Shown here one piece after another: positions 22,263 to 58,449 of a stretch of 64,000 nucleotides of DNA. This stretch comes from Rotaria sordida (Eukaryota). The translations under genes and the position numbers were made by a program. Location: assembly GCA_905250005.1 (NCBI GenBank), contig CAJNOH010000668.1, forward strand, positions 1-64,000, given 5' to 3'. The notes under the pieces were generated by a model, which was given only the letters and a program-made list of their open reading frames with translations, searched no databases and had not been told where the DNA came from. Each line of letters begins with the position of its first letter. Position 1 is the stretch's first letter.

Positions 22263-22315
22263 GATGTGGGTGTGGATGGCGCGAAGACTCAGAACCCCTA
22301 CCACACCCACACCCC
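22263..22315. repeat. Inverted telomeric-repeat pair: gatgtgggtgtggatgg ... cccctaccacacccacacccc.
   Basis: Read directly in the sequence. Confidence 0.85.
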
Positions 22316-30295: not shown

Positions 30296-30299
30296 ATGT

Positions 30300-37181: not shown

Positions 37182-37222
37182 GGGTGTAGGTGTGGATTCC
37201 TCTATTTCTATGGACACCCACA
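37182..37222. repeat. Inverted telomeric-repeat pair: gggtgtaggtgtgg ... cacccaca.
   Basis: Read directly in the sequence. Confidence 0.75.
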
Positions 37223-39099
37223 ATGATCTCAAAGTGTTATTACAAACTTGTTAGTGTTGATATTTTATACATCTACGTTTTCGAGATGTTAATAGCGTTA
37301 TCAAGCTCTCTGGTTCAATGGTGTCTGAATCTGTTTGTGACAGCGTCTTTGAGAAGTATACGATATCCTTTCTCATCTTTTTCGCCTATCAACAATGACA
37401 ATTTTTTATTGAAAGACATACTATAAGCTCAGAAGACTATTTGCTCTTATTTCTCTTATAAAAGAATTTCGTATTTGTCTATTATTAACAAAAATTTCAA
37501 TTGGTTTGATCGATTTTGATTTTTCGTTTGAAGATCGGTGATTCAAAAACCACGATTTTACTCATGCCTATTCTTTACATGTGAAAGAAAATATTATAAC
37601 CTGCATCATTTTTTTATTTACGTCGTATGCGACAGTCAATATACTGACACGAATCTTTTTTCAAGCAGTTGTCCTGTACACAGGCGAATGGATATGATAA
37701 GAACGAAAAAAAAAGGAATGCGTTACTTCAGTTTGCTCTTTTATTTTGTATTTGTATCTTCATTGTTTCTCATCAGTATTTTGCTCTTTACGGTTCTCAT
37801 TATATTCTATTTTTCCTTTTTAATTTCTCTCTTAATATTCCTTCAAGCATGAATTGATAGTCAGCGTATTAGTATCGATGATACGGAGTGTAACCCTTGA
37901 TTTTGAATATAGTTGTTCGTTTAAACATATATCTATTTCTTTCTCTTATCGGGTAATAAAAAGAAGTCGAATCATTATACGATCCCTCGTGCCATTTACA
38001 TAACAATGCAATAATAAATACACACTAATGATTCACAGGTGAGTAAAATAGATTAAGTATAATACATATTGTTGTCGTCATCTTTGATTACATTGTTAGA
38101 CATCGAAAAGAATGAAAAATTGATAATTTCAAATCTTATCATAATGCATAGTTAAATGAGTACGAATAGCTAGTAGAATCCAATAAGCATGTATTGATGA
38201 GAGTGTGGATGCTCATGATACAAATTTTTGCCTAAAAATCAAGTTAAAATTATAGTCTAAACTATACATGATGTGAAATATCAGCAAACAAACAGTTGAC
38301 GATGTTCATATCAAGTATCGACTAAACAAGAATATTCTTCCGATGACTATATCAAAAACTTACTTTGAGAAAGAGTCAGCTCATGGAACTGAATCATATT
38401 CGAGAAGTACCAAGATTAAATACTACATCACTGAGTTTTTTTATAGATCTCGAAAAATGATTGTAACTTACTTATTTTTTATAAATCAGTACGCATGTAT
38501 TCGTTGCATGATCATATTTTTAGACATTTTTCAGAAAACAAAATCTCACAGACGTTACTATTATGCATGGGTATAGTCAAGTGAAAAATATCTTTCTCGA
38601 TTATTAAAAATATGATTTATAGATATTCTGTCAACCTCACAATCTGAGAAACGCATACTATATCGGAGACAATATTTGAATGAATTAGAATTTCATACGC
38701 TAGACAATATCGATTCATTATCATGCTTAACTTTTAGAACGATAAACTACTATGTATTATTATTACATTTCGATCTTTATGGGTGTCAAATATTAGCCAC
38801 TTGTGTCTTAATAGAAATTTGTTTTTGACAAAAATATTTTGATTGAACATGTAATGTTAAATAGAAGAAAGAAATAAGAACTATCTAGAAGACAATTAGT
38901 AATTTCCAAATGTAGCAACTGTTTAATGTCTTTTTGAAAAGCTTACTCTATTGAAGCTCGTACAGACGAAATTGCATCTATGTTTCAGATATACTTATTC
39001 TATCATTCACGTTACAAAACACGTAATATAGTATCGCAATTCTATTATTGGTTAATATCAATAGTTTCGTTAATCATCTATTGATTTAAATATTGTGAA

Positions 39100-40773
39100 A
39101 TGATATATTTTGTAATATCCATAATTATTGGAATTATTTCGTATATAATCTACAAGAGATACAAAAACTCATTGAAGTCTCCTTCTACCACTACTCAGTA
39201 TGATCATGCCATAATTCTTGGAGGGAGCATTGGAGGAATCGTTACTGCAGCTTATTTATCTAAATATTTTAAACGAATAACTATTATTGAATCAGATGAT
39301 GTACTAAATGATATATTTATGAAATCTACACCTAGCGAAATATTAGATTATCGATGTCGACTTGAAAATCCAACATCATTAGGACGTTCAGGTGTTAGTC
39401 AAATATATCAATTACATGGACTTCAGGCTGAAGGTTATAAAATATTACAAGAATTATTTACTAATATAAAAGACAAATTATTCAATGAATATGGTGTTCG
39501 TACTTATTCAACAAAAAACGAGATCAAAGTAGCAATTGATGGTGTAGTCTTAAATCAATATTTAACCAAAGATATTGATTGGTTAGGTATTGATCGTTTT
39601 ACATTAGAAATAATTTTAAGAAAAGAATTCTGTTTGAAATTCAATAATCAAATTGAATGGAAATGTAATAGTAGAGTAATGAAATTAATTGTTAATCAAT
39701 CATCAAATATTGTTAAAGGTGTAAAATATCGATCAAAGAAAAATATCGATTCATCATCATTATTTGATATCTATGGAGATTTTATTATTGATTGTACTGG
39801 TCACAATACATCATCATCTAAATGGTTAAAAGAGAGTTTGAATTTAATTGTACCAACTGTACAAATACATTTTGGTGGTGGTGCTGTTACATTTATTGGT
39901 GAAAGATTTCGAACCGGTAATCTAACATTCGATTCAGCGGCTGTAATTGGTGTCATTGCTAATCCTCCGAAGAAAAATACTAGTTTTATTCTAAGTCCAG
40001 TGCGACAAATCAATACAACTGATCAAAATTCATTAGGAATATTAACAGCATGTGCTATAACCTGTGTTAATTCCGAATATCCACCTAATGATTCATATGA
40101 AAACTTATTAGAATGGACAAAAGAAAATCTAGATCCAGAATATTTTACGGTTATAAAATCAATAAAAATTTCTAGTCCAATAATTCCAAATCGTCATGCA
40201 ATTGATGATCGAAAGTATGTCGAAGTACTCGGTAAAAAATGGCCTCAAAATTATGTATTAATAGGTGATGCTATGTGTACATTTAATCCACAATATGCAC
40301 AAGGTATGACACATGCATGTAGACAGGCAAGAGAATTAGGAAAAATCTTTGGCGAAAATTGTCATAAATTAAAAGATATTTCTCATATTTTTAATCGTCG
40401 TGCTTCAAAAATTACTGAAGAATGTTGGCTTGCTTCGACTGTAAATGATTGGAAAATACCAACATTAAAAGTAATTGAAACAAATAAAAATGGTCAAGTG
40501 AAAATTTATCAAAGAGGTTATCATTCGGATATAACTAACAATGATGAACCACGAACACCTTTAAAAATACGATTTATGCAATGGTATAATTATTGGTTTT
40601 TTCAATGTGCATCGAAATCTGAACAATTAGCTACAGATTTCCTATTTGTTGTCAATCAATCGAGCAATCCATTAATATTAATGAAACCTACAACTTTTTT
40701 TAGAGTTATTCGTATGGCATTCATGAATTATTTAAAGGAGAAAGGTCTTTTTGGTAGAAGATCGACTTCATAG
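39100..40773 (+). CDS. FAD-dependent monooxygenase (class A flavoprotein hydroxylase / halogenase-like fold) with an N-terminal transmembrane anchor. Single exon, 557 aa.
   Basis: N-terminal helix MIYFVISIIIGIISYIIY. FAD-binding Rossmann GxGxxG: AIILGGSIGGIVTAAYLS. Second FAD motif YVLIGDAMCTFNPQYAQGMTHA (the GDAxH/NPxxGxGmn consensus of PHBH-family monooxygenases and flavin halogenases). The ORF is intronless, unlike neighbouring metazoan-type genes, and is bounded by telomeric-repeat islands at 37182-37222 and 41761-41822. Confidence 0.8.
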   Translation: MIYFVISIIIGIISYIIYKRYKNSLKSPSTTTQYDHAIILGGSIGGIVTAAYLSKYFKRITIIESDDVLNDIFMKSTPSEILDYRCRLENPTSLGRSGVSQIYQLHGLQAEGYKILQELFTNIKDKLFNEYGVRTYSTKNEIKVAIDGVVLNQYLTKDIDWLGIDRFTLEIILRKEFCLKFNNQIEWKCNSRVMKLIVNQSSNIVKGVKYRSKKNIDSSSLFDIYGDFIIDCTGHNTSSSKWLKESLNLIVPTVQIHFGGGAVTFIGERFRTGNLTFDSAAVIGVIANPPKKNTSFILSPVRQINTTDQNSLGILTACAITCVNSEYPPNDSYENLLEWTKENLDPEYFTVIKSIKISSPIIPNRHAIDDRKYVEVLGKKWPQNYVLIGDAMCTFNPQYAQGMTHACRQARELGKIFGENCHKLKDISHIFNRRASKITEECWLASTVNDWKIPTLKVIETNKNGQVKIYQRGYHSDITNNDEPRTPLKIRFMQWYNYWFFQCASKSEQLATDFLFVVNQSSNPLILMKPTTFFRVIRMAFMNYLKEKGLFGRRSTS

Positions 40774-41760
40774 AATTCTCTAAAACATACTTCTTCATAC
40801 AGTCAAACAATAAATTGTTCTTTTTTCTTTTGTGTTCTGTCAAGATTGATATGTTTCTACATGTGAAGGGGATGGGGAAGAAAAGAAAGCAATAAAGCAT
40901 ATCTTTAATCTGTGCAAGAAAATCTTTCTTCATCTTTATTTTTCGAACAATGAATCATTTTTGAAAGTTGTGATATTGACTTATGTCTTTTATTCAGTTT
41001 CGCAGTGTCACGTTATCTAAATACACTCGTAAGTGTTGGTAGTCTTCTATTAGTAACTATTTCGATCGCATTCTGGCGAACATTTGATGTCTGTTGAGAA
41101 CTTGCAGGAAACTCGGATCTTTAGTTGTGATACAAGTTTAAGAGTTATGAGTATTATATGATTTCTAATTCAATTTCAAGTGAAATTGGCAAGATTTACA
41201 CGGAAGAAATTGACTAGAGGGATAAAATTGTTTTCTTGTTATAAGAAACAGTGAAGTCGCTGAAATCGAATAACCATGGATGAACGAGCAAGTGCTTCTT
41301 GATGTTGGATTTCAGAACACTCCTACCCACCGCTGCTCATATGACATTGTCTATTTTGTTTTTTTTCTCTTTCTAGACACTCCTTGATAATCTGTGATAA
41401 ACAACTTGAGTAAAGCGTATGTAACATATGAGATATGGGTATCACTAATATATACTGCGACATATGAAGGAACTTCCTGGATTCACAATGTGTCAAAATT
41501 TATATTTTCACATTTTTATGTTCGATGACTAGTGCATCTTATATGTTTTTCAGACAAGTCATCTGAGAAATGTATAGGATAGAACTTATCAGGTTTAAAA
41601 TTTTCGATCTCGAAGAACTAGATGAGATCTTGTCAAATTTTGAGGTATGTTTAGATTTCCACAAACAGCCAATTTCCAAAATTACTATAAAATCCTATAC
41701 AATACAGAGACTAATCCATAGCAGAAATACAGAAATTTACTAGAAAGTGCAGAAAGGGGG

Positions 41761-41822
41761 ATGTAGGTGTGGGCATGGATGCGTTGTGTAGATAGTATCA
41801 TTGATTCACCCACACCTACATA
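41761..41822. repeat. Inverted telomeric-repeat pair: atgtaggtgtgggcatggatg ... cacccacacctacat.
   Basis: Read directly in the sequence. Confidence 0.8.
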
Positions 41823-41889
41823 TAACTATATGCAGGTCCCGCGCGAAGGTCCCAGGATTGGAAGGGGTGCAATGGGTCCTGAGGCAGCT

Positions 41890-42500
41890 AAGCTTGAGCG
41901 AAGCAAAAATTTTTTCAGTGGCGTAGCCAAGGGGAAAGAGGATCGGTCCCTTTCCAAGAAAAATTTCCTGATGGAGTACAGAGTTCAACTTTCGCGAAGC
42001 GAAAATTTTTTTTTACTATGATGGTCCCCCTTGGAACCCTGGTTCCTCCTCTTAGAAAACTTCTGGCTACGCATCTGATTTTTTTTCGCATTAGATCTGA
42101 TATTAATGTTTCTCTTGCAACCTAAAATGTAACAATTTCTCGCAAAGCAAAAGCTTTTTGCAACCTTCTTAAAAAACTCGACTTTCTCGGGCAAATTTTC
42201 AAGAAGACAATTCATGTCCAATGTAAGAAAATTTTTCAACAATTCGGCCGGCGAAGGCGGCCACGCTGGTGATGATTGTTCTCGATTAGGTCTTTCAAAG
42301 GGAAAATCGACTAAAGTTGGAAGTTTTTCTAAGTTAACTTTGGTTACGCAACTGTTATTTTTTGCGAAGCGAAAACTTTTTTCAGACTTATGAAAAACTC
42401 GTCTTTTGCTTATTTTTTTCGAAAGGAAAGAGTGTTGCGATAAGTCGTAACAATTTTGCCGCCAAAGACGGCCACCTAGTGATGATTGCTTGAAAATAAA
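41890..42500. repeat. Complex repeat of roughly 2-3 tandem ~220-bp units. Each contains (g)cgaagcgaaaa(n)tttttt, ...aaaaactcg(a/t)ct(t)tt... and g(c)cggc(g/c)aa(g/a)(g/a)cggccac(g)ctrgtgatgattg(t/c)t motifs. It also carries an inverted gcgtagcca...tggctacgc pair. The minus-strand ORF 41985-42509 is probably spurious.
   Basis: 42243-42285 ggccggcgaaggcggccacgctggtgatgattgttc vs 42453-42490 ttgccgccaaagacggccacctagtgatgattgcttg. gcgaagcgaaaa at 41990, 42364 and 41898 (variant). 41926 gcgtagccaagg vs 42058 ctggctacgc. Confidence 0.5.
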
Positions 42501-42884
42501 GCTGCTCACAAGGTAGAAAACCGTAAAATTGTCATAAAAATAGAAAAATCATAGACATTTTTAGGCTGAATACGCTCATATGATTATTCCTTCGCGAAGA
42601 GACAAATTTTAACATCTCAGAATTTTCTAGAAAAACCATCGTTTTACACTGGGTTTCGAGGAAAAAAAACCATCTAATTTCTTCAACTTGCCATAGAACT
42701 TCATGTTTTTCACCGATATAACAACTATAGTTTACAATTATTCGGGAAAGGTCATCCCCTAACTCCCTCTCTACTCAGAATCCTTTTGGGAGATGTCTGA
42801 AAAACCTCTAACAGGGAAGATATTTTAAAAGTTAAAAAAAATTCATCCACTTTGCTGGCTAATAATAAATAATTTTCAATTATT

Positions 42885-43650
42885 GTGGGGGTGTACACCC
42901 TCCTACACCCCTCCCCACTTTCGCGGGTGCTGGGTACAAGATAATCATATTCTCTTGTACCAAGATCTTGAATCAGATCTTGAGTACAGATATGGAAGAT
43001 CTTGGGTAAAGATTCATAAGATCTTAGGTGTGGATTCATAAGATCTTGGATACATATTAAGATAAAACGTGTTGCATGAGGCGTGATTTGGGACACAATG
43101 TATAATACATTTTTGAAAGCGTCGTTCGAACCTATCAAATAGTGCATTCATTATTTTTTTTCTATAAAACCATGTTATGACATTTTTTCAATTTAGTTTA
43201 ATTTTAATTATTCCTATCCCAAATAACTGAAGCAAGTCAGATCTTAGAATCTGCCTGACCTTGAGATAGTTCGATCTTCATCAGACTGCTTCAAGGTAGT
43301 CCTCTCTCAATCATCGATCGAGATCAGCATGTTCTCGAATGATCAACACTAGAGAAATAGTTTTAAAAAACAAACTATATTGAAAATGTATGTTTTGTAT
43401 GTTCAATCACGTTGTTTCTGTATGGCTCTGTATGCATTAAAAAACGGCGAATGACTAGTCAACATGTAAACACTAATGATGTCGCTCTTTTACTCAAGTT
43501 CTTGTGAGAAGACAATAGTAAACGATGTCTTTTCTATGATCTTGACAAGATCTTAAGTACAGATTTATCCGATACAACCAAGATATTCACATACAAATTA
43601 TCTTTTCAAGATCTTATGAAGATCTTGCTTACAAGATGTTCGACTAGGGA
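42885..43650. repeat. Element bounded by clusters of the palindromic word AAGATCTTG. Clusters lie at 42956-43065 (6 copies) and 43541-43640 (5 copies). The element begins at a zero-spacer inverted telomeric junction GGGTGTACACCC.
   Basis: caagatcttgaatcagatcttgagtac...gaagatcttgggtaaagattcataagatcttaggtgtggattcataagatcttgga, then ...gatcttgacaagatcttaagtac...caagatcttatgaagatcttgcttacaagatg. 42889-42900 gggtgtacaccc is a perfect 12-bp palindrome. Possibly a DNA-transposon remnant. The minus ORF 42752-43147 is probably not real. Confidence 0.35.
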
Positions 43651-44324
43651 TTTGTTCTTTTACCTTTAATTTAAAACAAGTAATGTTTAAGTACCTAATA
43701 GGAATTACATTAATAAGACCCTTCTTTTATTATCAAATGAATCGTCAACTTCGATTTTTTTTATTACAATAAGTTTTAGGGTCATCATTTACATTTACTT
43801 TTTTGTTCTGGTCTTTGTCATGAATCAACCATTTGAGTCATGTTGTTTTACGAAAAAAAGTCAAATACACAGAACAGAAAAATGTCGACAGTCGTCAGAA
43901 TGATTCTCTCGCCTTTTATTTTGCAACATACTAAATTTCACAACTACCGAGTTGGATGTGTTATATACATCACATTTCTAGATACTCCTATCAACTGAAT
44001 GCATTACTTCAACGGCTACCAAACGTACTAGATAATATTTGTGTATAGTTTCACATGATAGAAATCTCGTATAATTAGTATAAATTTCGGAAGTACGTCT
44101 GTCACTCGGCAATTTTGCTTTGTATTACATCGAGACATCTACACTTACGTCATCTTCCATCTTCACTGACCTATCACAAGTAAAGCAACGATACACTTTT
44201 GTTTTTCTCTGCAGTTGTTAAATCATCCACTTTTTGCGTACATACATGTTACTAATTCTATAAAAAATTTTATTCATAGTAACGAAATCAACTCTTATTA
44301 CAAGCGTAACAACTTACTTTTAAG

Positions 44325-47300
44325 ATGAATATCGAGATGAATCCTTCTCATACGAAACCAAGTTTTTGGTATTGTGATGTATGCAAGCGTAATTTCGATC
44401 ATGGGACGTTTCGTTACAACTGTATCGTGTGTCCCGATTATGACCAATGTAAGGAATGTACAGCGACGATGTGCCCACCACATCCTCACTCTTTAGTTCT
44501 CGAGTTGGCTTTTGGTGATGGAGAAAATACAACTTCCAATGGGAGAACTATGGCATCTGCAATTGAAGCAGCGATAGAGATCTATTGTGATCGTCAATGT
44601 CTGGGAGTACGAGACTTCGATAAAGATAATCCCGAACACTATGCCAATACCTACTCATGGCAAACTTACAAGACAGTGGGAGATCGGTCGATAAATTTTG
44701 GCCATGGACTACGACGTTTGATCGAACCACGTGATTATGTTGGTATTTGCGCATCGAGTCGACCCGAATGGGTTATATCAGACTTTGCATGCATGTTACA
44801 AAATTTTATTGGTGTACCGATATATTGTCTTTTGAATGATCGTGATACTGCTTTTATCGTTAATAACACGAATATATCCTTGATCGTTTGTGACAAAGAG
44901 ATGCTACCGAAATTTATTCGACTACGCTCAGAGTGTCCATCACTCCGTTATCTCGTTTGCATGGAACCAATTCTTCATACGACTACAGGTAGGAATAGAT
45001 ACCATTCAAATTTCATGAGCTCTTTTAAGGGTCATCTAAAAAGTTTTCTTGGCCAGATTCTTCAATTTATCATGAATCTTGCTAGTTCTAGAATATTACT
45101 GATATTCAATGAAAAATCATCCTTTCTTCGTTCATTTTGATCTATGAAAATCACATTGATTGTATCAATTTATTTTGTTGTAGACACGAACAGTAATGAA
45201 TTGTCGAATCAATGTTCCACCGGTTCTTATCAGTCGTTCTTGAATTTTGATAAATACAGTGAAGTACCGAAGAAAAAAGATGGTCTTTCGATTCACTACA
45301 TTGGTGATATCGAAAAAATGGGCTCTTGTAAACGATACAATTATGTCCCTATCGAGCCGAATGATATTCTCACCATCATTTATACAAGTGGTAGCTCCGG
45401 CTTCCCGAAAGGAGTCATGATTTCTGACAGTGCTTTGAGAAGTCTTTTTTCAGAGGAACTTTCACCATCGACTGGCGAACAAGTGACGTTCTCCTATCAA
45501 CCACTTGCATGGTATGGTGGACGAAATAACTTGATTGGAACGTTTCTTCTTGGAGGATGTGCTGGATTCTTCACAGGCAATCCATCTCGGCTGATGGAAG
45601 AGTTGGCTTTGGTAAGACCGATGGTTTTTCCTGCTCCACCAAGTATTTGGAATAAAATTTATTCCGAATTTAAATCAGCTCTTGCATTGACTATGGTCGC
45701 TGATTCACAACAACATGCTGAAGTAGAAGAAGAGCTTCTTCGACAGTTCTCAAAATTAATTCCATCAAGGTGTAATACGATCGCTATCGTCGGTGCCCAA
45801 ATCAGTCCGTTAGTACTCGACTTTATGCACAAATGCTTTCGACACTGTCAAATCGAAGATGGTTATGGAATCACAGAATGTGGAGGTGTAGCATTCAACA
45901 ATCGTTTCGATCCAACTGTTATCTATCGACTTGAATCAGTTCCTGAAATGAACTTTACACTTGAAGATCAACCTTTCCCACGCGGTGAACTTTTAACAAA
46001 AACACGTCAAATGTTTTCCGGATATGTCAATAATCCGACCGAAACACGAGCAGCATTGACCGATGACGGTTTCTTTCGTACTGGCGATATTGTTGAACTA
46101 CGTCAAATCCCAGATAGACCACCTTATGTCTATATAATTGATCGCAAGAAGAATTTCTTCAAACTTTCCAACGGACAATTTGTGTCTCCTGAGTATCTTC
46201 AGGGTATCCTCACTCGAAGTGCTTTCATCGAACAGATCTTCATTCATGGTGATCTGTATGAAGACAGTGTCACTGCTGTTATTGTACCCAATCGAGATCA
46301 CGCTCAAGCATTTGCCATTGAGAACAATATAACGTCGCTCGAATCGGATCCGAAATTTTACGACGCAATCATGCGTGATTTGCATGAAATTGGTACCAAG
46401 GAATCACTTCGAAAGCATGAAATTCCATCACGAATAATTATTGATTTCGAACGATTCACCGTCGAAAATGGATTGCTCACTTCATCCTTGAAGCCTTGTC
46501 GTCCCAAATTGATTGCTCATTATGCAAAGCGATTGAAGACAACAAACACATTGGAACAACGGTTGAAAACCATCATCGAAACAGTCACAGGTCAATCGTT
46601 GACGATCAATGATCATGTCAACTTTCTAGCCACCGGTGGTAACTCTTTGGCAGCCGTACGTTTATCACGAATGGTTCGCGAGGATCTCGGAATCACTCTG
46701 CCACTCAATATTCTTTTCCAATCCGAGATGAATCTCAAACGTTTGACAGAGTTTGCTCAAAATCCTTCATTGATTCAACACGATTCGATCGTCTCGCGAC
46801 TCCTACATGATGCCGAACTTGATCTCAATATTACAATTGGCAAACCAAAAATACTTGCTAGCTTCCCATCGATGGTTTTCGTGACGGGTACAACAGGATT
46901 TGTTGGTGGTTTCTTATTATTCGAAATGTTGAATAGATATCCGATTGATTGTAAATTCATTTGTCTCGTTCGATGTGAACAGTCGACGAATCCATTAGAT
47001 CGTATTCAAAAGAATATGGTTTTTCTTCATCTATGGCAAGACCATTTTCGAGAACGTATCGTACCGCTACGAGGCGATCTTTCTCAGACTCAGTTTGGAC
47101 TAGATGACAAGACTTATGCATCAATTGCAGCGCAAATTGACCTCATTTTTCATTGTGGTGCCACTGTCAATTTCCTATTACCCTATAGCCAACTTTATGG
47201 TTCGAACGTTTGTGGTACTCGAGAAATCATTCGTCTTGCAACTTATCCGTCCAACTGTATTCCTGTACAATATATATCGACAATCAGTGTTCTACCACCG

Positions 47301-47927
47301 GGTATTGTCGAGGAAATGCATATTGACGCTATCACACCACATTGTCTGACCACTGGTTATGGACAGAGTAAATGGGTGGCAGAGAAACTTATGAGAAAAG
47401 CTAGCTGTTTTGGTCTACCAGTTGTCATCTATCGGCTTGGCTCAATGTGCGCTAGCGTGAATAGTGGTGCCTGTAATCCACTCGATCTTCATACAATATT
47501 CATCATTGCCATATTGAAGACAGGTTCTTATCCGACCGAAGCGCTCAGCATGAGGCTCGACACTTTACCAGTGAATTTCGCTGCTAGCAATATCGTTCGT
47601 CTGAGTCTCGTTCGACCTGATGTGTATGGAAATGTCTATCATGTTGTTCATCCTGATGGTGGAGTGACATTTCAGAATATCGTTACAAGTGCGAAATTGT
47701 ATGGTGTAAAAGTAAACGATGTTCCTTTCGAACAATGGCGATCAACGATGCGAGGCCATTCATTTGAATCAGCCGACGAGTTGCTATTCGAGTTGATTTT
47801 CGGAAAACGATTAATATTATCGGCCAAACAATTTTACAGTATTGTATCTCCACTCAACATTCCGGCTATGGACAACGACTATACAAATAAATGGTTAGCA
47901 TTTATAATGCAAAATGTTCGACATTGA
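44325..47927 (+). CDS. NRPS-like carboxylic-acid/acyl reductase: N-terminal ZZ-type zinc finger, adenylation (AMP-binding, ANL), thiolation (PCP), and thioester reductase (R) domain. Two exons (44325-44988, 45184-47927; intron 44989-45183), ~1135 aa.
   Basis: ZZ: YCDVCKRNFDHGTFRYNCIVCPDYDQCKECTATMCPPHPHSL. A-domain cores: A3 IIYTSGSSGFPKGVMIS, A5 EDGYGITECGG, A7 FFRTGDIVEL, A8 IDRKKNFFKLSNGQFVSPEYLQ, A10 LLTSSLKPCRPK. T domain 4'-PP site: NFLATGGNSLAAVRLSRMV. R domain: VFVTGTTGFVGGFLLFEML (TGxTGFLG NAD(P) motif) and GYGQSKWVAEKL (YxxxK). Intron: donor ACAG|gtagga at 44988/44989, acceptor ttgttgtag|AC at 45183/45184, phase-consistent (…HTTT-D-TNSNE…). ORF 45144's MKITLIV start is therefore not a real start. 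Confidence 0.9.
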
Positions 47928-48251
47928 TGACATGTCATCATTTTCTATAATCATGTGAATCATTTTTGTAATATGTGCGGATGTTACACAAATAATAATA
48001 TATTCGGATAGAGAAACAACTTTCATTGTTTCAGTACAAGATAAAATTAATAGTAGAAAGTATATCCTGGAATTTTTTGGACGGTCAAAGAGATATTTAT
48101 TAAAAAGGATGAGTTGCATAAAAGCTAATATTGATTTGCACATACAACAAAAACAAGATCATTTTCGTTTCTTGTATTGTTTTGTGTACATTGTTTTGAC
48201 CAACTAAATACAAGTCAAATAACTTGTACAAAGAACTGGTTGCTTTGTTTG

Positions 48252-48614
48252 TAGGGGTAGGGTGGAGTGCGGTTGTGGTTGCGGGTGTGGATATCGGTGT
48301 GTGGGTGTGGATGTGGATGAAGGAAGTACCTATACCCACACCCACACCTACCCATACACATCCACGCCCACACCCACATGCACACCCACACCCCACACCC
48401 AGTGTGGATATGGGATGTAGGTGTGAGGTAGAACAAAATCAACCAACTCAGGTACATACTTACAGCGACAGCGCCAACCACACCATAAATATTCCTAATA
48501 TCCAAATTCAAGTTTAAGTCAATGCGACATGATTGCCATCTTGAGGGTGAGTGTGGATGTGGGTGGATGGGTGTACGATTGTTTTCAACAACACCCATAA
48601 TCACCCACACCCGC
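48252..48614. repeat. Largest telomeric-repeat island with the block order G, C, G ... G, C. It sits immediately 3' of the A-T-R gene. The overlapping ORFs (48100-48396, 48215-48610, 48224-48517) are artefacts.
   Basis: gtaggggtagggtggagtgcggttgtggttgcgggtgtggatatcggtgtgtgggtgtggatgtgg / cccacacccacacctacccatacacatccacgcccacacccacatgcacacccacaccccacaccc / gtgtggatatgggatgtaggtgtgaggt / gggtgagtgtggatgtgggtggatgggtg / cacccataatcacccacacccgc. Confidence 0.9.
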
Positions 48615-48759
48615 AGTTATACTACACTGTCGATATCTCAGCTGGAGTGTAACTTGTACTCATATTCTTTTAAGCTTTTTCTGCTGCATATGTGACGTAG
48701 GGTGCACCGATTTTGAGCTCAAAAGCTTTTTAGTACTTCAGGGATTTGACCGTAAGAGA

Positions 48760-50858: not shown

Positions 50859-50908
50859 ACACTACACCTCCACATCCTAAGCTGCCCACACTCGTACCCA
50901 CACTCGCA
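50859..50908. repeat. Degenerate C-strand telomeric block (cacactacacctccacatcc...cccacactcgtacccacactcgcatcc) ~230 bp upstream of the ART-TPR gene.
   Basis: Read directly in the sequence. Confidence 0.6.
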
Positions 50909-51136
50909 TCCTTCTTGTCAATAATCGACTTATCATCAGCTCGCACAAGACGATCGCATATAGCACACGTCAGTAGTCACCTTATTCAGCATGAAAATTT
51001 GTTCAAGATAGTAACGAAATGCTTGCCTCAGTAAAATATTTCGTTATGTCTTTTCATGAAGAATTTTTAGCTAAAGTATAAGCGGATCTGTTTCGTACCT
51101 TATGCAATACCGTTCTATGAATCATTTAGAAGAATT

Positions 51137-53422
51137 ATGTCGAAGATATTGTCATTATCGACTGAAAATATTTCAATCCCGTCACAACATCTACCTCTAT
51201 CTGCAATTAATGGGGACAACAAAGAAAATACAACTCTTATTTGGTTTGATCCAAACATTGGTTCATGCGAAGATATCAAGATTACGATGAACCGACTTCG
51301 AAAAATAAGTGATTATACTGTGTTTCATACCGAACTTGAATTCTGTGTCACTTTGATCAAATCAATTCAAAATGGAAAAGTATTCTTGATTACATCTGGA
51401 AAACGTGCCTCAGAACTCTTGCCACACATTGTAAATCTTCGTCAAATCGATTCAATCTTCATTTATTGCACAAAGTCAAGTGAATATGAGCATTTGATGA
51501 AGACCTATTCGAAAATAGTTGGTATCTATGTGGATATCGAGTCACTGTGTGCATCCATTAGAGAACAAGTTGATCTAGTTGACAAGCAACTGGAAACATT
51601 TAGTTTCTTTGATCAACATCAGAAGTCGACCAAAGATCTATCGAAAGAATCAGCCGAATTTCTGTGGTTTCAGCTGTTCAGTCATGTAATCTTAAGTCTT
51701 CCACACGATCAACAAGCTAAGTGCCAAATGCTCAATTTCTGTCGTCAGTATTATCGTGGAAATAATAAGCAACAGAAACTGATTGATGACTTTGAACAAA
51801 ATTATCAGCCTGAGTTAGCTATTCAGTGGTATTCAAAACAATCTTTCATCTACAAACTAGTTAACAAAGCTTTACGAAGTGAAGATATCGATCAACTTCA
51901 CACATTTCGATTTTTTATTGGAGATCTCTCCCACAGTCTTAAACGTGAGCATCAAAAGATTGCTCGATCTGGAGAAAAAAACTTGACTCTTTATCGAGGA
52001 TTGAGGCTATCAAATGAAGAACTCAACAAACTCAAAGAAAATCAAGGAAAACTCATCTCGACTAATGGATTTTTATCAACTAGTCGACGTCGATCACTAG
52101 CGGTTGCCTTTGCAACCAAACACACGACACGCACTGATGCTTTACCCATTCTCTTTCAAATCGAGTACAATGTGAACAAACTAGATGATTCTGTTATCTG
52201 TGCAGATATTGCTGAATTCAGTGATTATCCAAAAGAAGAAGAAGTTCTCTTTGATTTTAATGCTGTATTTCAAATCGAAAATATTCAGCGTGATGCACAA
52301 CTATGGATCATTAAAATGAGTGCATCAAGAGATGGACAAACCATTACACACGACTACATCGATTTAATGCGTCGTGAAACCGACGAAAAAACAGTGCCCA
52401 TCATGTTTGGAAGATTAATGTGTCAAATGGGTCAGTACGACAAATCTTTCAAATATTTTGAACAGCTCTTACTTCACCCAAATGGCGAAGATCTAGCATC
52501 AATCGAATTCAATATGGGTCGAACGCTTCATGACAAAGGTGAACGGAAATCAGCTCTGAAATACTATGACAGTGCTTACAACCGAATGATGAATGTCGAT
52601 CCACCTCGAATCAAAGACTCAGCATCTGTGCTCAACAATATTGGAATTGTTCTTCAGCAGCGTGAAAAATATGAAGAAGCATTGGATTTCCATCAAAGAG
52701 CACTCAAAATACGAAAGAAATATTTTCCCGTCGAACATCCTGACATTGCTCTCAGTTTAAAAAATATTGGTCCTGTGCTCAAGGAACAAGGAAAATACAA
52801 CGAAGCTCTCGACTACTATCAGCAAGCACTTAAAATACAAGAACAATATTATCCGCGCAGTCATCCAATCATTGCTTCTAGTCTCATTATCATTGGTAAT
52901 GTTTGTCGTAGTCAAGAAAAATTCGATGAAGCCCTTGAGTTATATCAACGAGCCTTGAAAATGCTACAAGAATGTTATCCAACAGACCATCCCGACATTG
53001 CATGGAGTCTCAGCAGCATTGGTTCAATCTTTCAAAATCGACAGGAGTACCAGAAAGCCCTCGATATGTATCAACAAGCTCTCACCATGAAAGAGAAATA
53101 TTATCCTACAGATCATGTCTCTATTGCATGGAGTTGCAACGATATTGGATCTATCTTACAAGCTCAAGGAAAATACGATGAAGCCCTCAACTATCATCAA
53201 AGAGCACTCCAAATATTAGAAAAGCACTATCCTGCAACTCATGTCAATATCGCTATTAGTCTAAGAAATATTGGAGAGAGTTACGAAAATCTAAATAATT
53301 CAAAGTTGGCGCTCAATTTTTACAAAAAAGCATTGGTTATTTATAAGAAAAGTCTGCCTGTGGATGATCCTGTGCGAAAGAAAACTGAAGAAACTATTGG
53401 TCGACTCTCTTCCTTGGAATGA
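51137..53422 (+). CDS. ADP-ribosyltransferase (R-S-E clade, arginine-ART-like) fused to ~8 kinesin-light-chain-type TPR repeats, preceded by an uncharacterised ~170-aa N-terminal domain. Single exon, 761 aa.
   Basis: ART triad with proper spacing: TLYRGLRLS (R), GFLSTSRRRS (S-T-S), DYPKEEEVLFDF (E-x-E). TPR_10/12-like 42-aa repeats: EALDFHQRALKIRKKYFPVEHPDIALSLKNIGPVLKEQGKYNEALDYYQQALKIQEQYYPRSHPIIASSLIIIGNV... repeated through ...ALNFYKKALVIYKKSLPVDDPV. Confidence 0.8.
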   Translation: MSKILSLSTENISIPSQHLPLSAINGDNKENTTLIWFDPNIGSCEDIKITMNRLRKISDYTVFHTELEFCVTLIKSIQNGKVFLITSGKRASELLPHIVNLRQIDSIFIYCTKSSEYEHLMKTYSKIVGIYVDIESLCASIREQVDLVDKQLETFSFFDQHQKSTKDLSKESAEFLWFQLFSHVILSLPHDQQAKCQMLNFCRQYYRGNNKQQKLIDDFEQNYQPELAIQWYSKQSFIYKLVNKALRSEDIDQLHTFRFFIGDLSHSLKREHQKIARSGEKNLTLYRGLRLSNEELNKLKENQGKLISTNGFLSTSRRRSLAVAFATKHTTRTDALPILFQIEYNVNKLDDSVICADIAEFSDYPKEEEVLFDFNAVFQIENIQRDAQLWIIKMSASRDGQTITHDYIDLMRRETDEKTVPIMFGRLMCQMGQYDKSFKYFEQLLLHPNGEDLASIEFNMGRTLHDKGERKSALKYYDSAYNRMMNVDPPRIKDSASVLNNIGIVLQQREKYEEALDFHQRALKIRKKYFPVEHPDIALSLKNIGPVLKEQGKYNEALDYYQQALKIQEQYYPRSHPIIASSLIIIGNVCRSQEKFDEALELYQRALKMLQECYPTDHPDIAWSLSSIGSIFQNRQEYQKALDMYQQALTMKEKYYPTDHVSIAWSCNDIGSILQAQGKYDEALNYHQRALQILEKHYPATHVNIAISLRNIGESYENLNNSKLALNFYKKALVIYKKSLPVDDPVRKKTEETIGRLSSLE

Positions 53423-53539
53423 TAAGCTTTTATGCATCGATACGGAAAGAAACACGATGAACTAAAATCAGATTGGTTATATTCATTCACGATTTTGTTT
53501 TGTTGAAATAAATCATAGCAACAGCAATTTCCTACACTC

Positions 53540-53630
53540 GGGGTGTGAGTGTGAGGATAGTTCTTCTATTCATCCACACTCGCGCTCGCTTCAACCCGCA
53601 CTCGAAAAACCTACACCCACACACCCACAC
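53540..53630. repeat. Inverted telomeric-repeat pair 3' of the ART-TPR gene: gggtgtgagtgtgagg ... catccacactcgcgctcgcttcaacccgcactcg...cctacacccacacacccacac.
   Basis: Read directly in the sequence. Confidence 0.8.
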
Positions 53631-55274
53631 TTTTTTCGAGACATTGAATAACTTGGCTGATCGCTGCCTAGAGTAATGTAGTAAACTTAACAGATTTACA
53701 ATCAAAATACCAAAGTAACGATGAAATACTAAAAATTTAGTATTGTGGTAATTTGTCTCGTCCTCTGCCTTTCTAACAAAACAAAACTTAGCAGCATAAT
53801 TAAATTTTGCGACAAAAAGTGAGGCCGTACAAACTCCGTATGATCATTCAGTCGCCACAGCAGGGAAAGGCTACGAATAAACAGCATGATATGGATTTGT
53901 CGTTACCGACTTTGAAGAGAAAAATGCCCAAGGAGACCAACCCCTTGCATTGGCTACAAGTTGATGAAATATCTTCGTAAGTACGGCCCCACTGTCGTTT
54001 CTTTAGAAGTTATATTTATACAAAAAAAAATTGAAGTGGTGCAATAACCTTAGAAAGTGATTCATCATCAGCCAGCCTCTTGTTAACTGTGCTATTTAAC
54101 ATGGTTTAACTCACTCAAATGAGCTATTCGCAATCAAAGTTTTAGAACAAAAATTAGCTGCTAGTATTCTTCTTGTTCTATGTAATATTTTACTCAAGAT
54201 TGTTCTTGTAAACAAAGTCTTTTTCTTGTTATCAAGCACAATTTTCAAACAGCAGTGGATGTTTTCGTCGTTCAATAACATCGCCATTGTTCAGACACTA
54301 GTCTGTATTGTGTAGTTATTTAGGCCTTTTAAGCTTCTGGAGTTATTTTTTCTTTCATTCAGGCTACTTTCACTTCAGGCATCCTGTATTCACTCTACTA
54401 ACAAGGGAATCTGTTTCAGACAAAATTTTTGTGTGTGAAGTCAATATTTCCCTGTTACGTTGGAAGAAGGACTTAGTCTAAACTTGCGATTGTTTAGATT
54501 CGAGCTACGAGACGTGTTTCTTAATTCTCATTTTCAGATTCTGTCTATACATAGCAGTGTTTCGCAATTTTTTTTCCTAAAACCATCGACAAAGCCATAG
54601 CATCTTTAACAAAATCTGTTGATGCAGCGTCATGTCACCTTAGTATTGATTTCCTGTTGTTTTGTTTTGCATGTTCGAAAAAAATCACCAACTGAGACTC
54701 AACGAGGTGCACCATTCTTCATTTGCTTATCGATTTTTTCTGTGCAAATGGAAAGAGCTTCTCAAGTGTACCCTGTGCAAATATATCAACTTTTCACGAG
54801 AAAGAACAAGAAAAGTATGTGGGTCGATCAAATTTTTGTTGCTCGTTCCCGATGACTGATGCGGCCCAAACAACGCATTTTATTTTGTCAGAAAATGAGG
54901 GGAGCAGGCATAGCGTTTACTTCGACTTTTGAAAATGGTGAAAGAGCTGAGATAAATAACATTGATTCAAAGCCACCACGACTCAAACTCCTATTTCGTC
55001 GAAAAAATTCATACGTCTGCCAGAGACAGAACATAGACATTGAACTTCAACGCACAGACTTTCATGAATCATCCTGCAGATTGATAAAGCTTCTTTTCAA
55101 TCAATTTGTGCATTAGCTACGAAAAACCTCAAGAACTAGCCCATCTAGTTCAATAAACTGCAGATCACGCTGTGAACACAAAGGTGACAATGCGATCGAA
55201 TGCTACTTGCGAAGAGTGGTAATGAGTCTCCGCTTTGCTATCAGCGGCTAGAAGACAAATATTGTTCATGTCAC

Positions 55275-55490
55275 CGTGTGCGTGTGGGTGTCGTGTTGAT
55301 GAGGAGTAGGTGTGAGGTGGATTTGAGGTGTGGGGTGTAGATGTGGGTGCGAGGTATGTGGGCGTGTGGGTGTGGAACCGGTGTCAGCGTAGGTCTTGTT
55401 TGGACCTGCATCCTACACCCGCACCCCACCCGACACCCACACTTACACCCACACCACGCCCACACCCCACACCCACACCCTTCTGTATAA
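55275..55490. repeat. Telomeric-repeat palindrome of ~215 bp. G-strand arm ~105 bp, 32-bp centre, C-strand arm ~78 bp.
   Basis: gtgtgcgtgtgggtgtcgtgttgatgaggagtaggtgtgaggtggatttgaggtgtggggtgtagatgtgggtgcgaggtatgtgggcgtgtgggtgtgg | aaccggtgtcagcgtaggtcttgtttggacctgcat | cctacacccgcaccccacccgacacccacacttacacccacaccacgcccacaccccacacccacaccc. The ORFs 55271-55465 and 55328-55510 are artefacts. Confidence 0.9.
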
Positions 55491-55740
55491 GTTTTGATTC
55501 TGCCATATAATAAGAAATTCTAAACATACCTGATGAGTCCCTACAGCAACAATGAAACATTATATGATGCTTTGAATCTATCTAATACGAGAAATACACC
55601 CGCACCTCAAATTTTATTTTGACGATAGAGATATGTTTATTGATAAATATTCAATAGAAAATATTTACCAAAATTACAGAAAAAAAATTTTTAAACAAAA
55701 CCACCAATCTACTTTATTTTGTGAATGATCGTCGTTGCAT

Positions 55741-56580
55741 TCATCCTCTTTCCTTTTTCACTAGTTTTTTCAAAAACCAATCCCACCGGAGTGTGAGTTC
55801 CTCCATTATTGAATCAAAATCAACTTCATTTCCTTTCCCTTCACGTATTCTCGTGCGAACCAACAACCATTCACCATCTTCGATCTCTGACAGATCATCT
55901 TCATTATGAATTGTTACATTTCCTTTCCCTGCTTTCGCACTTTTGAGTGTTCTTATAATTGCTTTAGTCGTTTTCAATGTTATCATATTGATATAAACAT
56001 TATGCTGTTTTTCTAAAGAAGCGATATAACCATCTCTACCGATAAATCGACTACGTTGCACTTTTTTTGCAGCTTCGTTTAGTGAATTCAACTTTGGCTT
56101 TCTTGCAATTTTATATGGTAAATAAAGAAATCTTCCATTTTTAAGTGCTTCGCGTGAGTTACTCCTTCTGTTTTTTCCTAGCATAGATTCTCGAACATCC
56201 ATAATTTGCTTTTCTTCAAAATCAGATGAATCATTATCAAGTTTTATAGGTTTATCAACAGTTGATGTTGATAATACGCATCTATGTGAAATCCAATTCT
56301 CTTTTATAAATTTTTCTAACCTGTACAATGATAGAAAAAGTTTGAAATCACTTGTTTTATCTCGATCTATTTTATCAGTAAGAATTTTCAATTTCATTAC
56401 TTTATTTTTTCGATCAATAGAAACACTTGTTGGTGTTTCCTGGTCAATAATGTTGCATGTACAACATTGGCGAGGTATATTTCGTAACTTACATACAGGT
56501 ATACAATTTTGTTGTCGAATTTCATTGACAACAGCATGAAATAAGGAACGATACCTTGGATTGTGTACAAGACAAGCCAT
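55741..56580 (-). CDS. Hypothetical basic protein (280 aa from ATG MACLVHNP...) with an N-terminal Cys cluster (CLVHNPRYRSLFHAVVNEIRQQNCIPVCKLRNIPRQCCTC) and a K/R-rich middle. Single exon.
   Basis: Long minus ORF (55741-56616 from an alternative start; first ATG at 56580). A TATATATATA box lies at 56631-56640 (minus-strand upstream). The gene is exactly bracketed by a telomeric-repeat palindrome (55275-55490) and an inverted telomeric pair (56873-56933). I do not recognise a family. Confidence 0.5.
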   Translation of the reverse strand: MACLVHNPRYRSLFHAVVNEIRQQNCIPVCKLRNIPRQCCTCNIIDQETPTSVSIDRKNKVMKLKILTDKIDRDKTSDFKLFLSLYRLEKFIKENWISHRCVLSTSTVDKPIKLDNDSSDFEEKQIMDVRESMLGKNRRSNSREALKNGRFLYLPYKIARKPKLNSLNEAAKKVQRSRFIGRDGYIASLEKQHNVYINMITLKTTKAIIRTLKSAKAGKGNVTIHNEDDLSEIEDGEWLLVRTRIREGKGNEVDFDSIMEELTLRWDWFLKKLVKKERG

Positions 56581-56630
56581 TATGTAAGGGAGAAAACGAA
56601 TGCATGAAAAAAACAAAAAGCACTATTTTA

Positions 56631-56640
56631 TATATATATA
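56631..56640 (-). promoter_or_regulatory. TATA-box-like element ~50 nt upstream of the ATG of the 55741-56580 gene.
   Basis: tatatatata read directly in the sequence. Position relative to the first ATG (56580) is consistent with a core promoter. Confidence 0.3.
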
Positions 56641-56872
56641 GGAAGAAGGATTGTGCAATAACAAAGAATAATTCAACCATCATGTGAGATGCAAAATGAA
56701 AGAACAAACATTAGTCATGATGATTGTTAACAAGATAAGGGAAAATAATCTTTTTCCAAGTTGATCATTATTAGTTGATTTTCTAATTATTCATAATACG
56801 AGAATATTTCAAGTCATCGAAGATAAATAGAAAATGTGTATATGAAAATTGAGAAAACTTGAAAAACGAATG

Positions 56873-56933
56873 ATGGGTGTGGGTGAGTGTTCACTAAGAG
56901 ACAATAACATCCACACCGACACCCACACCCGCA
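56873..56933. repeat. Inverted telomeric-repeat pair: atgggtgtgggtgagtgt ... catccacaccgacacccacacccgcac.
   Basis: Read directly in the sequence. Confidence 0.85.
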
Positions 56934-57408
56934 CTCTCAGTGAAAAAATTAAAAGTCATATTTTATTTTCACAACTGAATCAGTGTCTATTTCGTCATTA
57001 CTCTCATGTGAACATGATATGTCTCATTGTTGCATTTATTCTTTGCTGCAAGTTATCTTTTTTTTTTGTTGCCGTTGTTGACTCATATGCACACTTCTAT
57101 ACCTTTCTTCAATCATTATTTTCGATCAAACATTCGTATTCATAGTATCACAACGGTGCTCCTACCAGCATTATTCTTTCATTCTGCACTGAAAATAAAA
57201 GTACTGTCTCTCGAGAGCTTGTATATATTTTTTTTTTAATCAAAGAGCAAATATAATTTCGGCCTCAGATAACGTTAAGGGAAAGAGAGAACAAAACGCA
57301 TAAAGTGAGTAAGCATTTTCGTGCATACTAATAGCTCGTTTTTCTGTATCACTATTGACATAAACATCGACATCAGGTGCCTAACTTAGACAGTTTTCTT
57401 AATACTTT

Positions 57409-58449
57409 TTGGTTCTTCGTTCAGGTAAATTGACAGATATGATTATGATTATCGGATTTGTTATTTTTCTTTATATCACTTATCGATTGTATCGACACTT
57501 TTTTCCTGAAGCTAATGTTAATCCTCATAGCAAATATGTTCTCATCAGTGGATGTGATAGCGACTTCGGTAATGTCCTAGCTATCGAACTTGACAAACAA
57601 GATTTCAATGTCTTTGCTGGTGTCTAGAGCGCGGATAGTAAAACTTTACTGGCTAATCAACTTTCTTCAAGAGCAATTGTCTTTTTACTTGATATTACTC
57701 GACAACAAGACATCGATTCGGCTTACAAAATGATCAAAGAAAAGACGAATACTCTGCATGCTTTAGTCAACAATGCAGGTATTTCTACTGCTGGTCACAT
57801 TGACTGGATCACCTTAGAATCAATGCGTCAGGTGATGGATATCAATTTTTTCGGACACGTAGCCATGACTAAAACATTTCTACCTCTGCTAATTAGTAAA
57901 CGAGACTCGCGCGTAGTGAACATTTGTTCGGTGGCCGGCTTCACATCTCCACCATCTGGTTCAGCCTATTGTGCTTCTAAATACGCTCTGGAATCGTTCT
58001 CGGATTGTTTTCGTTGTGAAATGCTTGCCTGGAGGTTGCATGTAAGCATTATCGAACCAGGCATCATGCAAACGTCAATTATTCAAAAGCATGCACAAGC
58101 CGTACGTGAGGTAGGAATCCAATTATCGGCTGCTGTTCGAGAATGATGGGGCGAGGAATTTTTGAAGTATCATTTTGAAAGTTTAAAAACCAATATTTTG
58201 GTTCGGTGGGCTGAAGATCCAATTAAAGTAATAAATGCACTTCAACATGCAATAAAAAGCAAGTCACCATGTATTCGTTATCGACCTGGTTCGCAGTCTA
58301 AATTTGTTTACTTTCCTTTATCAATAATACCTGCCTGTTTAATCGATTTTTATTATACAAAAACACGTTCCGTACCCGTTCTGCCGCAGGCGTTACTAAG
58401 CAACTCAAGCCATAAATTCAATTTGAACACAATTATTAGTGAATGTTAG
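57409..58449 (+). pseudogene. SDR9C-type microsomal short-chain dehydrogenase (retinol / 17-beta-hydroxysteroid / 3-hydroxybutyrate dehydrogenase-like) with an N-terminal membrane anchor. The otherwise single, continuous reading frame is interrupted by two in-frame stops (TAG 57625-57627, TGA 58144-58146).
   Basis: IIGFVIFLYITYRLYRHFF (anchor). YVLISGCDSDFGNVLAIELDKQDFNVFAGV*SADSKTLLANQLSSRAIVFLLDITRQQDIDSAYKMIKEKTNTLHALVNNAGIS matches the TGCDSGFG...VxAGCL...LDVT...GLWGLVNNAGI pattern of the SDR9C family. NICSVAGFTSPPSGSAYCASKYALESFSDCFRCEM (S...YxxxK active site). Then ...SAAVRE*WGEEFLKYHFESLKTNILVRWAEDPIKVINALQHAIKSKSPCIRYRPGSQSKFVYFPLSIIPACLIDFY (the family C-terminal region). All three ORF pieces (57409, 57730, 58162) are in the same frame. 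Confidence 0.7.

Follow-up and report, generated by a model that had tools for sequence, protein, structure and literature searches.

In our study, we examined a window of 64,000 nucleotides from the bdelloid rotifer Rotaria sordida (assembly GCA_905250005.1, contig CAJNOH010000668.1, positions 1 to 64,000 of the forward strand), in which four genes follow one another on the + strand. They correspond to a membrane-anchored flavin monooxygenase (hereafter the flavoenzyme), a protein with adenylation, thiolation (carrier), and thioester reductase domains (A-T-R), a putative ADP-ribosyltransferase with TPR repeats (ART-TPR), and a short-chain dehydrogenase/reductase (SDR). An original prediction, made from the sequence alone, had taken them for a candidate horizontally acquired enzyme set with a possible common function. 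We found that the window is probably an ordinary subtelomeric mosaic of R. sordida, where four functionally unrelated genes lie side by side and form neither a co-acquired nor a conserved pathway. Repeated breakage of the chromosome end, telomere healing, and end joining would have placed the four genes together, each of them coming from its own large, old, and bdelloid-wide family. The four genes were present with the predicted domains and positions in a Pfam check (Table 1), and the expected poverty of the enzyme genes in introns was borne out. The open reading frame (ORF) at 39100-40773 was 100% identical to a Rotaria sordida protein.

Linkage of the Genes Among Bdelloid Rotifers

Linkage was studied at 11 related loci with ~10 kb on either side; L004 and L005, as well as L009 and L010, were near-duplicates, which left ~9 independent places. 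The A-T-R loci (L001-L005) comprised an ENA contig matching at 80%, one locus each from Adineta steineri (L002) and Adineta vaga (L003), and two contigs of Rotaria sp. Silwood1. The flavoenzyme loci (L006-L011) comprised two each from A. steineri and A. vaga and one each from R. sordida and Silwood1. In tblastn searches with the window proteins, no flavoenzyme or SDR was found near the A-T-R in 5 of 5 loci, and no A-T-R or SDR was found near the flavoenzyme in 6 of 6 loci. The conserved linkage expected of a biosynthetic cluster was thus present at 0 of the 11 related loci. The closest A-T-R orthologue, which belongs to the congeneric Silwood1 and shares ~88-93% amino acid identity by different measures, was preceded by peptidase S9 and M28 genes in place of the flavoenzyme of the window. 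DNA homology with Silwood1 was confined to positions 43650-48238 of the window, with ~92% nucleotide identity over the main aligned block, and the orthologous A-T-R cassette has different neighbors in the two congeneric species. In A. vaga, flavoenzyme and A-T-R paralogues on one chromosome were more than 100 apart in locus-tag number, a distance inferred from the numbering of the tags.

A rival explanation is that the genes constitute a horizontally acquired and co-functioning module for tailoring or detoxification, in which, for instance, reduction of a lipid acid would yield an aldehyde or alcohol, followed by epoxidation or hydroxylation. The two intact enzymes do lie on the same strand, ~3.5 kb apart; the ancestry of the A-T-R is non-metazoan, the closest structures of the flavoenzyme are natural-product epoxidases, and horizontally acquired biosynthetic clusters are known in bdelloid subtelomeres (PMC11258130). 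The missing linkage argues against such a module, as do the telomere-repeat junction that divides the flavoenzyme from the A-T-R and the proposed dehydrogenase, which was found to be an animal-type pseudogene. A common origin was also not found, the A-T-R being of amoebozoan type, the SDR of animal type, and the flavoenzyme bdelloid-only, with telomere junctions between the genes. The families of the two intact enzymes differ in ancestry, and both are older than the divergence of the sampled bdelloid genera. With these different ancestries, a dead SDR, and no conserved linkage, the co-acquired and co-functioning module of the original prediction is very unlikely.

Two further observations were made in A. 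steineri. A second A-T-R fragment, encoding the C-terminal ~100 amino acids at 50% identity, lay in opposite orientation at the end of the contig (L002:19138-19446), ~6 kb from the full-length A-T-R, which indicates a local duplication of the family. Fatty-acid desaturase and sulfotransferase genes (L009:4289-5656 and L009:15931-17193) flanked a flavoenzyme paralogue, with many telomere junctions between the genes; this neighborhood is lipid-related and may equally be coincidental.

Telomere-Repeat Junctions and Subtelomeric Character of the Window

The TGTGGG hexamer was found in the window as near-perfect dimers with 22 matches against 0.03 expected, and a looser telomere-repeat scan gave 212 scoring positions against 0 in shuffles. 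The tracts were degenerate and mostly head-to-head, where a G-strand run is followed by an unrelated spacer of 4-60 nucleotides and then by a C-strand run. In the window and seven non-redundant loci, we counted 16 junctions of the head-to-head orientation and 1 of the opposite orientation, with the C-strand run first (binomial p = 2.7e-4); the junctions were located in the window, L002, L004, L006, L007, L009, and L011. Between the junctions, the segments read 5'-(CCCACA)n, gene, (TGTGGG)n-3', like linear fragments capped at both ends. No description of this orientation bias was found in the papers searched, a set outside which lay Gladyshev et al. 2008, reportedly a work on the foreign-gene regions of bdelloid subtelomeres. 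In Rotaria and Adineta, subtelomeric copies of the A-T-R and flavoenzyme genes had junctions at a distance of 0.4-2 kb, and no junction was found at the A. vaga A-T-R locus (L003) or at the lanosterol synthase loci described below (L008 and L012-L014).

Each gene had been predicted to occupy its own telomere-capped segment. This proved right for the A-T-R (segment 41809-48320), for the ART-TPR gene, which lies between tracts at 50884 and 53605 within the segment 48590-55376, and for the SDR, whose segment starts at 56906. It did not apply to the flavoenzyme, whose segment of 19.5 kb (22295-41783) also holds a G protein-coupled receptor (GPCR) gene and a tandem array. The contig of the Silwood1 orthologue stops close to the start of the tract at 48264, with homology reaching 48238 (position 12920 of 12957 in L004).

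A bdelloid subtelomere is recognized by interstitial (TGTGGG)n tracts that occur alongside foreign genes, tandem repeats, and genes for repeat proteins (PMC2861651); all of these were present in the window, and the same signature has been published in PMC3846280. Families described as expanded in bdelloids are foreign genes, seven-transmembrane (7TM) receptors, and TPR proteins (PMC3846280). A TPR gene was also detected by Pfam in the window, and the two rhodopsin-family 7TM receptors (Table 1) represent a further family reported to be expanded in bdelloids. The tandem array showed a very strong excess of C over G, with a GC skew down to -0.49, and contained overlapping ORFs of 219-249 amino acids on the + strand that had no Pfam match. 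Mobile elements were considered as the cause of the intergenic gaps and rejected; the ORFs at 41985-42509, 42752-43147, 48215-48610, and 55741-56616 had no Pfam match and resembled low-complexity noise, and the repeat search found short local repeats only. The G+C content at third codon positions (GC3) was 0.15 in the flavoenzyme, close to 0.12 in the VWA exon, and 0.35 in the A-T-R, close to 0.37 in the GPCR. Codon usage, which had been proposed as a check for a foreign signature, was therefore uninformative, as it did not separate the "foreign" from the "native" genes.

Table 1. Features of the window and of the related lanosterol synthase loci.
Feature	Position	Strand	Basis or remark
Flavoenzyme: putative group A flavin monooxygenase, membrane-anchored, single exon, 557 aa	39100-40773	+	Motifs, fold
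A-T-R exon 1: ZZ zinc finger (C17-C45) and N-terminal part of the adenylation domain	44325-44988	+	Pfam ZZ, AMP-binding positions 9-118; motif scan; phase analysis
A-T-R intron, GT..AG, 195 nt, phase 1	44989-45183	+	Read from the sequence; length a multiple of 3
A-T-R exon 2: remaining adenylation domain, carrier domain (Ser709), thioester reductase domain	45184-47927	+	Pfam AMP-binding, PP-binding, NAD_binding_4
ART-TPR gene, single exon, 761 aa	51137-53422	+	Pfam ART, ADPrib_exo_Tox, TPR_12
SDR9C-type (DHRS9-like) pseudogene	57409-58449	+	Pfam adh_short; translation
Head-to-head junction	1458-1512		
Head-to-head junction	22261-22319		
Head-to-head junction between the flavoenzyme and A-T-R segments	41757-41834		Also inverted repeat I1
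Two head-to-head junctions closing the A-T-R segment	48264-48399 and 48540-48615 (span 48264-48615)		
Isolated C-strand tract upstream of ART-TPR	50884-50911	-	
Isolated C-strand tract downstream of ART-TPR	53605-53632	-	
Head-to-head junction	55270-55483		
Head-to-head junction opening the SDR pseudogene segment	56873-56943		
VIT and VWA exons of a multi-exon PARP4/vault-like animal gene	4850-6497		GC3 0.12; flanking C-strand telomere tracts at 1481 and 7458
7TM receptor ORF, rhodopsin family	24336-25286	+	Pfam 7tm_1; in the 19.5-kb flavoenzyme segment
7TM receptor ORF, rhodopsin family	59617-60162	-	Pfam 7tm_1
Tandem array, ~3.1 kb	27141-30285		Period ~93 bp; copies roughly 75% identical
Lanosterol synthase-flavoenzyme pair	A. 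vaga L008:7597-11653; R. socialis L012:7494-11650, L013, L014		

Structure and Class of the A-T-R Enzyme

The A-T-R gene was found to contain one intron, which holds an in-frame TGA (45138-45140); the acceptor used was the sole in-phase one nearby. The Adineta orthologues were intronless at this position. A pseudogene was considered and rejected, since the apparent stop falls in an in-phase GT..AG intron and the orthologue ORFs, in the Rotaria-like L001 and in L004, are broken at the same place. The spliced protein of 1135 amino acids contained every core motif intact. The adenylation motifs were A3 (YTSGSSGFPKG) at 288, A5 at 448, A7 at 519, and A10 at Lys658, followed by the carrier motif GGNSL at 706-710 and the reductase motifs TGTTGFVG at 789 and YGQSK at 947. 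Catalytic motifs had been named with the original prediction as a point to check, and the motif scan found none of the core motifs disrupted. A lineage-specific insertion of ~25 amino acids adjoined the intron.

The order of AMP-binding, PP-binding, and NAD_binding_4 domains on one polypeptide is that of a carboxylic acid reductase (CAR). The protein matched the CAR structures 5mso, 5msc, and 5msp of the PDB with E-values of 1e-83 to 1e-90, and the NCBIfam model NF041592 (carboxylic acid reductase) with 449.7 bits (cut-off 1300), where amino acids 70-1055 were aligned to profile positions 28-1061 of 1160. The match to TIGR01746, the thioester-reductase domain model, was above the cut-off. The likeness to the bacterial CARs stayed below the equivalog level, with the bits under the cut-off and an identity of ~30%, and the A-T-R is predicted to work like a CAR without belonging to the bacterial CAR equivalog. 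It does not qualify as a canonical nonribosomal peptide synthetase (NRPS), having no condensation domain (PF00668 was without match in the Pfam scan), and its adenylation domain scored best with fatty-acid ligase and CAR models, not with amino-acid adenylation models (NCBIfam). In the proposed reaction, the adenylation domain, which is of ACSL type, would use ATP to activate a carboxylic acid, probably a fatty acid; the phosphopantetheinyl arm at Ser709 would receive the acyl group, which the SDR-type reductase domain would then free by NADPH-dependent reduction, giving an aldehyde or alcohol. The ratio of nonsynonymous to synonymous substitution rates (Ka/Ks) was 0.16-0.21 against orthologues, and the gene is accordingly read as being under purifying selection.

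Ancestry of the A-T-R Family

With the A-T-R as query, an exhaustive phmmer search found bdelloid-type sequences first, followed by full-length relatives at 30-39% identity. Among the 30 matches whose taxon labels were looked up, down to ~350 bits, the non-bdelloid ones were all amoebozoan except for Thecamonas, an apusomonad, and one divergent Didymodactylos sequence was also present. The amoebozoan genera were Cavostelium, Rhizamoeba, Stenamoeba, Balamuthia, Clastostelium, Protostelium, Arcella, Acytostelium, Echinamoeba, Cavenderia, and Tieghemostelium. The highest of these scores was 662 bits in Cavostelium, followed by 350-480 bits in other Amoebozoa, whereas named bacterial proteins appeared from ~320 bits down. 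A bacterial origin was rejected, as the amoebozoan relatives outscored the bacterial ones by far. The ZZ finger was common to several amoebozoan A-T-R proteins, including those of Protostelium and Clastostelium. In a neighbor-joining tree (1028 columns, 100 bootstraps), the bdelloid A-T-R clade was monophyletic with 100% and sister to Cavostelium with 85%, within a radiation dominated by Amoebozoa. An ancestry of the amoebozoan ZZ-A-T-R type, and hence a non-metazoan one, is supported by these comparisons. The family, with more than 100 clusters, was found in Adineta, Rotaria, Didymodactylos, and Philodina, which places the acquisition before these genera diverged.

The original prediction was thus right that the A-T-R is not a normal animal gene, with the nearest non-bdelloid relatives in Amoebozoa and the bacterial CARs more distant. 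Its suggestion of a foreign origin for the set was supported for the A-T-R and not for the animal-type SDR, and no donor was identified for the flavoenzyme. A recent import was not supported, as both families are old and expanded in bdelloids, with 94 clusters for the flavoenzyme and more than 100 for the A-T-R. One sequence of Didymodactylos carnosus (P0241, 979 amino acids) is a divergent A-T-R that grouped with Arcella and Protostelium, apart from the main bdelloid clade; it could have been acquired independently on a second occasion or stem from an assembly contaminated with amoebal DNA.

The resemblance of the A-T-R to amoebozoan proteins, the linked-read draft assembly from which the window comes (PMC7943196), and the coincidence of repeat tracts with contig breaks would also fit an assembly chimera or contamination, in which microbial or amoebal DNA was mis-joined to rotifer DNA. 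We regard this as extremely improbable. The identity to the amoebozoan proteins was only 30-39%, and none of the sampled bdelloid genera lacked A-T-R orthologues, which in the chromosome-level assembly of A. vaga were flanked by animal genes. The spliceosomal-type intron was common to Rotaria, the bdelloid telomere repeat marked the segment borders of the window, with animal GPCR and VIT/VWA genes alternating among the segments, and the same junction architecture was found in independent assemblies.

The Flavoenzyme and Its Family

The flavoenzyme contained an N-terminal hydrophobic transmembrane anchor (amino acids 1-19), the dinucleotide motif GGSIGG (amino acids 41-46), which agrees with the consensus derived from 50 full-length members of the family, and the GD motif (GDA) at 389. 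The deposited gene model has 484 amino acids, begins at Met74, and is devoid of the FAD-binding N-terminus. The Pfam match was weak and restricted to the C-terminal region (PF04820, profile positions 316-377, around the GD motif). In a Foldseek search with the AlphaFold2 model (pLDDT 89.6), Lsd18, MonCI, SQLE, and PHBH were each matched with a probability of 1.0. The closest were Lsd18 and MonCI (E 1e-30, TM 0.70/0.83), with the next matches at E 1e-18, and halogenases, squalene epoxidase, and PHBH trailed them by ~12 orders of magnitude. Group A flavin monooxygenases are marked by a single FAD-binding domain of Rossmann type, the dinucleotide motif, the GD motif, and a fold like that of PHBH, all of which were present, and the predicted PHBH-fold assignment was correct. 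A halogenase was considered and rejected, as the WxWxIP motif was absent, the PF04820 match was limited to the region of the GD motif, and halogenases ranked far lower by fold. The most likely chemistry of such an enzyme would be the epoxidation or hydroxylation of a lipophilic olefin.

The 94 clusters of the family were all from bdelloids or unnamed metagenomes, and a profile-seeded search beyond bdelloids likewise gave bdelloid or unnamed metagenome matches only. The NCBIfam scan gave no match, i.e., no bacterial family model fits. A pattern scan of 185,579 prokaryotic genomes confirmed no relative, which is weak evidence as the patterns were narrow, and no donor was identifiable at the available search sensitivity. 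Exact look-ups of the window ORF and of the deposited model returned no record. The Ka/Ks was 0.42 against the closest paralogue. Judging from these searches, the flavoenzyme is presumably a diverged subtelomeric paralogue in a bdelloid-only family.

In both genera, the most conserved branch of the family, with 79% identity between A. vaga and R. socialis, follows an intronless gene for lanosterol synthase at a distance of 236-339 bp and in the same orientation, with Nup88 downstream of the pair; the copy of the window shares 55% identity with the A. vaga member. The synthase matched human LSS with E 1.6e-225 and contained the DCT(S/A)E motif (ITDCTSEG). No cyclase was present in the window. 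As a membrane flavoenzyme of epoxidase fold adjoins an oxidosqualene cyclase, a role in squalene or sterol oxidation, as epoxidase or oxygenase, is suggested for the founder of the family, whose most conserved member sits in core-genome synteny. The whole synthase block is syntenic, and the adjacency alone is therefore no proof of coupling. Literature searches for the family or for the flavoenzyme/lanosterol synthase pair found nothing specific.

The relaxed Ka/Ks of the flavoenzyme, its deposited model of reduced length, the insertion beside the A-T-R intron, and the neighboring SDR, which is already dead, would be expected if the two enzymes were decaying subtelomeric copies, i.e., incipient pseudogenes without current function that are intact in looks only. 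Both genes contained full-length ORFs in which all catalytic and cofactor motifs were conserved, the A-T-R was constrained against its orthologue, and the value of the flavoenzyme, measured between paralogues, was still below 1. We consider decay unlikely.

The SDR Pseudogene and the ART-TPR Gene

The SDR frame is interrupted by two genuine in-frame stops (TAG, 57625-57627; TGA, 58144-58146), with good translation on both sides. It matched DHRS9 (PDB) over its full length with E 1.6e-45, whereas the next-best SDR structures of any origin were at ~1e-20; the SDR is therefore animal-type. With its two stops, it is read as a pseudogene of the SDR9C family and is presumably dead.

The ART-TPR gene contained an intact catalytic triad (R287, S314-T-S316, and E367-E-E369), which is the R-S-ExE signature of arginine-specific ADP-ribosyltransferases, and its product would be an arginine-type ADP-ribosyltransferase fused to TPR repeats. 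Paralogues with 30-40% identity and in differing orientations adjoined unrelated A-T-R (L002) and flavoenzyme (L006) copies. A conserved partnership with the A-T-R was considered, as in A. steineri the A-T-R is followed by a copy at a distance of 0.9 kb; this copy is only 40% identical and on the opposite strand, another adjoins an unrelated flavoenzyme, and the partnership was rejected in favor of a family that is merely common in such regions.

Discussion

In our study, the A-T-R, flavoenzyme, and SDR genes of the window were found to differ in ancestry, the A-T-R and flavoenzyme families were not linked elsewhere, and telomere-repeat junctions separated the genes, which is consistent with an ordinary subtelomeric mosaic. 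A few points weigh against this reading. Lipophilic substrates are plausible for both intact enzymes, whose genes share one strand, and a lineage-specific functional association in R. sordida may exist. The linkage test covered only ~10 kb flanks at ~9 independent places, and some contigs were shorter. The phmmer search on the ancestry of the A-T-R was exhaustive, with taxon labels for 30 matches only, and the tree was built from a crude distance with an arbitrary outgroup. The functions of the enzymes are inferred, and their substrates are taken from family resemblance only.

Tentatively, the head-to-head junctions may be scars of gene capture and shuffling, in which telomerase-capped linear fragments were joined at chromosome termini, although we hold this to be rather less likely than not to be the case. 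Linear DNA fragments, foreign or endogenous and with one or a few genes each, would gain telomere repeats at both ends, and the capped fragments would then be joined end to end at the termini, so that bdelloid subtelomeres would be built cassette by cassette. If true, such a mechanism would explain the uptake of foreign genes as well as the expansion of the A-T-R and flavoenzyme families.

The main result is negative, and it keeps a chance neighborhood from being reported as an "animal biosynthetic cluster." Studying the families is nevertheless useful. Bdelloids were found to contain a large, constrained, CAR-like family of amoebozoan ancestry. The published NRPS and polyketide synthase (PKS) screen demanded a condensation domain (PMC11258130), and the A-T-R family, which has none, therefore fell outside its coverage; literature searches for a prior account of the family found nothing specific. 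For an uncharacterised family of membrane flavoenzymes, a testable role in the oxidation of squalene, sterols, or other lipids is suggested, and the oriented telomere junctions provide a testable picture of gene capture and reshuffling at bdelloid chromosome ends. These findings on families are modest additions and do not amount to a new kind of system.

Comparison With Known Systems

The bacterial CARs (CAR/FadD9; 5MSO, 5MSC, 5MSP; NF041592) share the A-T-R order with the protein of the window, which matched their profile from end to end, and both contain adenylation motifs of ACSL type, the carrier serine in GGxS, and the reductase motifs TGxxGxxG and YxxxK. Unlike the bacterial CARs, the A-T-R of the window contains an N-terminal ZZ zinc finger and an intron and belongs to a eukaryotic host. 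The best non-bdelloid matches were the ZZ-A-T-R proteins of Cavostelium, Protostelium, Clastostelium, Balamuthia, Arcella, and dictyostelids, together with that of Thecamonas, several of which contain the same ZZ, A, T, and R architecture. Compared with these uncharacterised amoebozoan proteins, the bdelloid family is expanded (more than 100 clusters at 90% identity) and partly subtelomeric.

The flavoenzyme was nearest, in sequence (E 4e-13) as well as in fold, to Lsd18 and MonCI, the polyene epoxidases of polyether synthesis in Streptomyces, with which it shares the group A FAD architecture and the GD motif. It differs from them in the N-terminal membrane anchor, the C-terminal helical extension, an identity of only 15-17%, and a location outside any polyketide cluster. 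The SDR frame matched vertebrate DHRS9 (SDR9C4) and related retinol and hydroxysteroid dehydrogenases over the full length, whereas its two premature stops presumably leave it non-functional. The window as a whole resembles the subtelomeric foreign-gene regions and NRPS/PKS clusters described in the same species group (PMC2861651; PMC3846280; PMC11258130; PMC10531068), with which it shares a mixture of foreign ORFs, genes of the TPR and 7TM families, and tandem repeats, interspersed with short stretches of telomere repeats.

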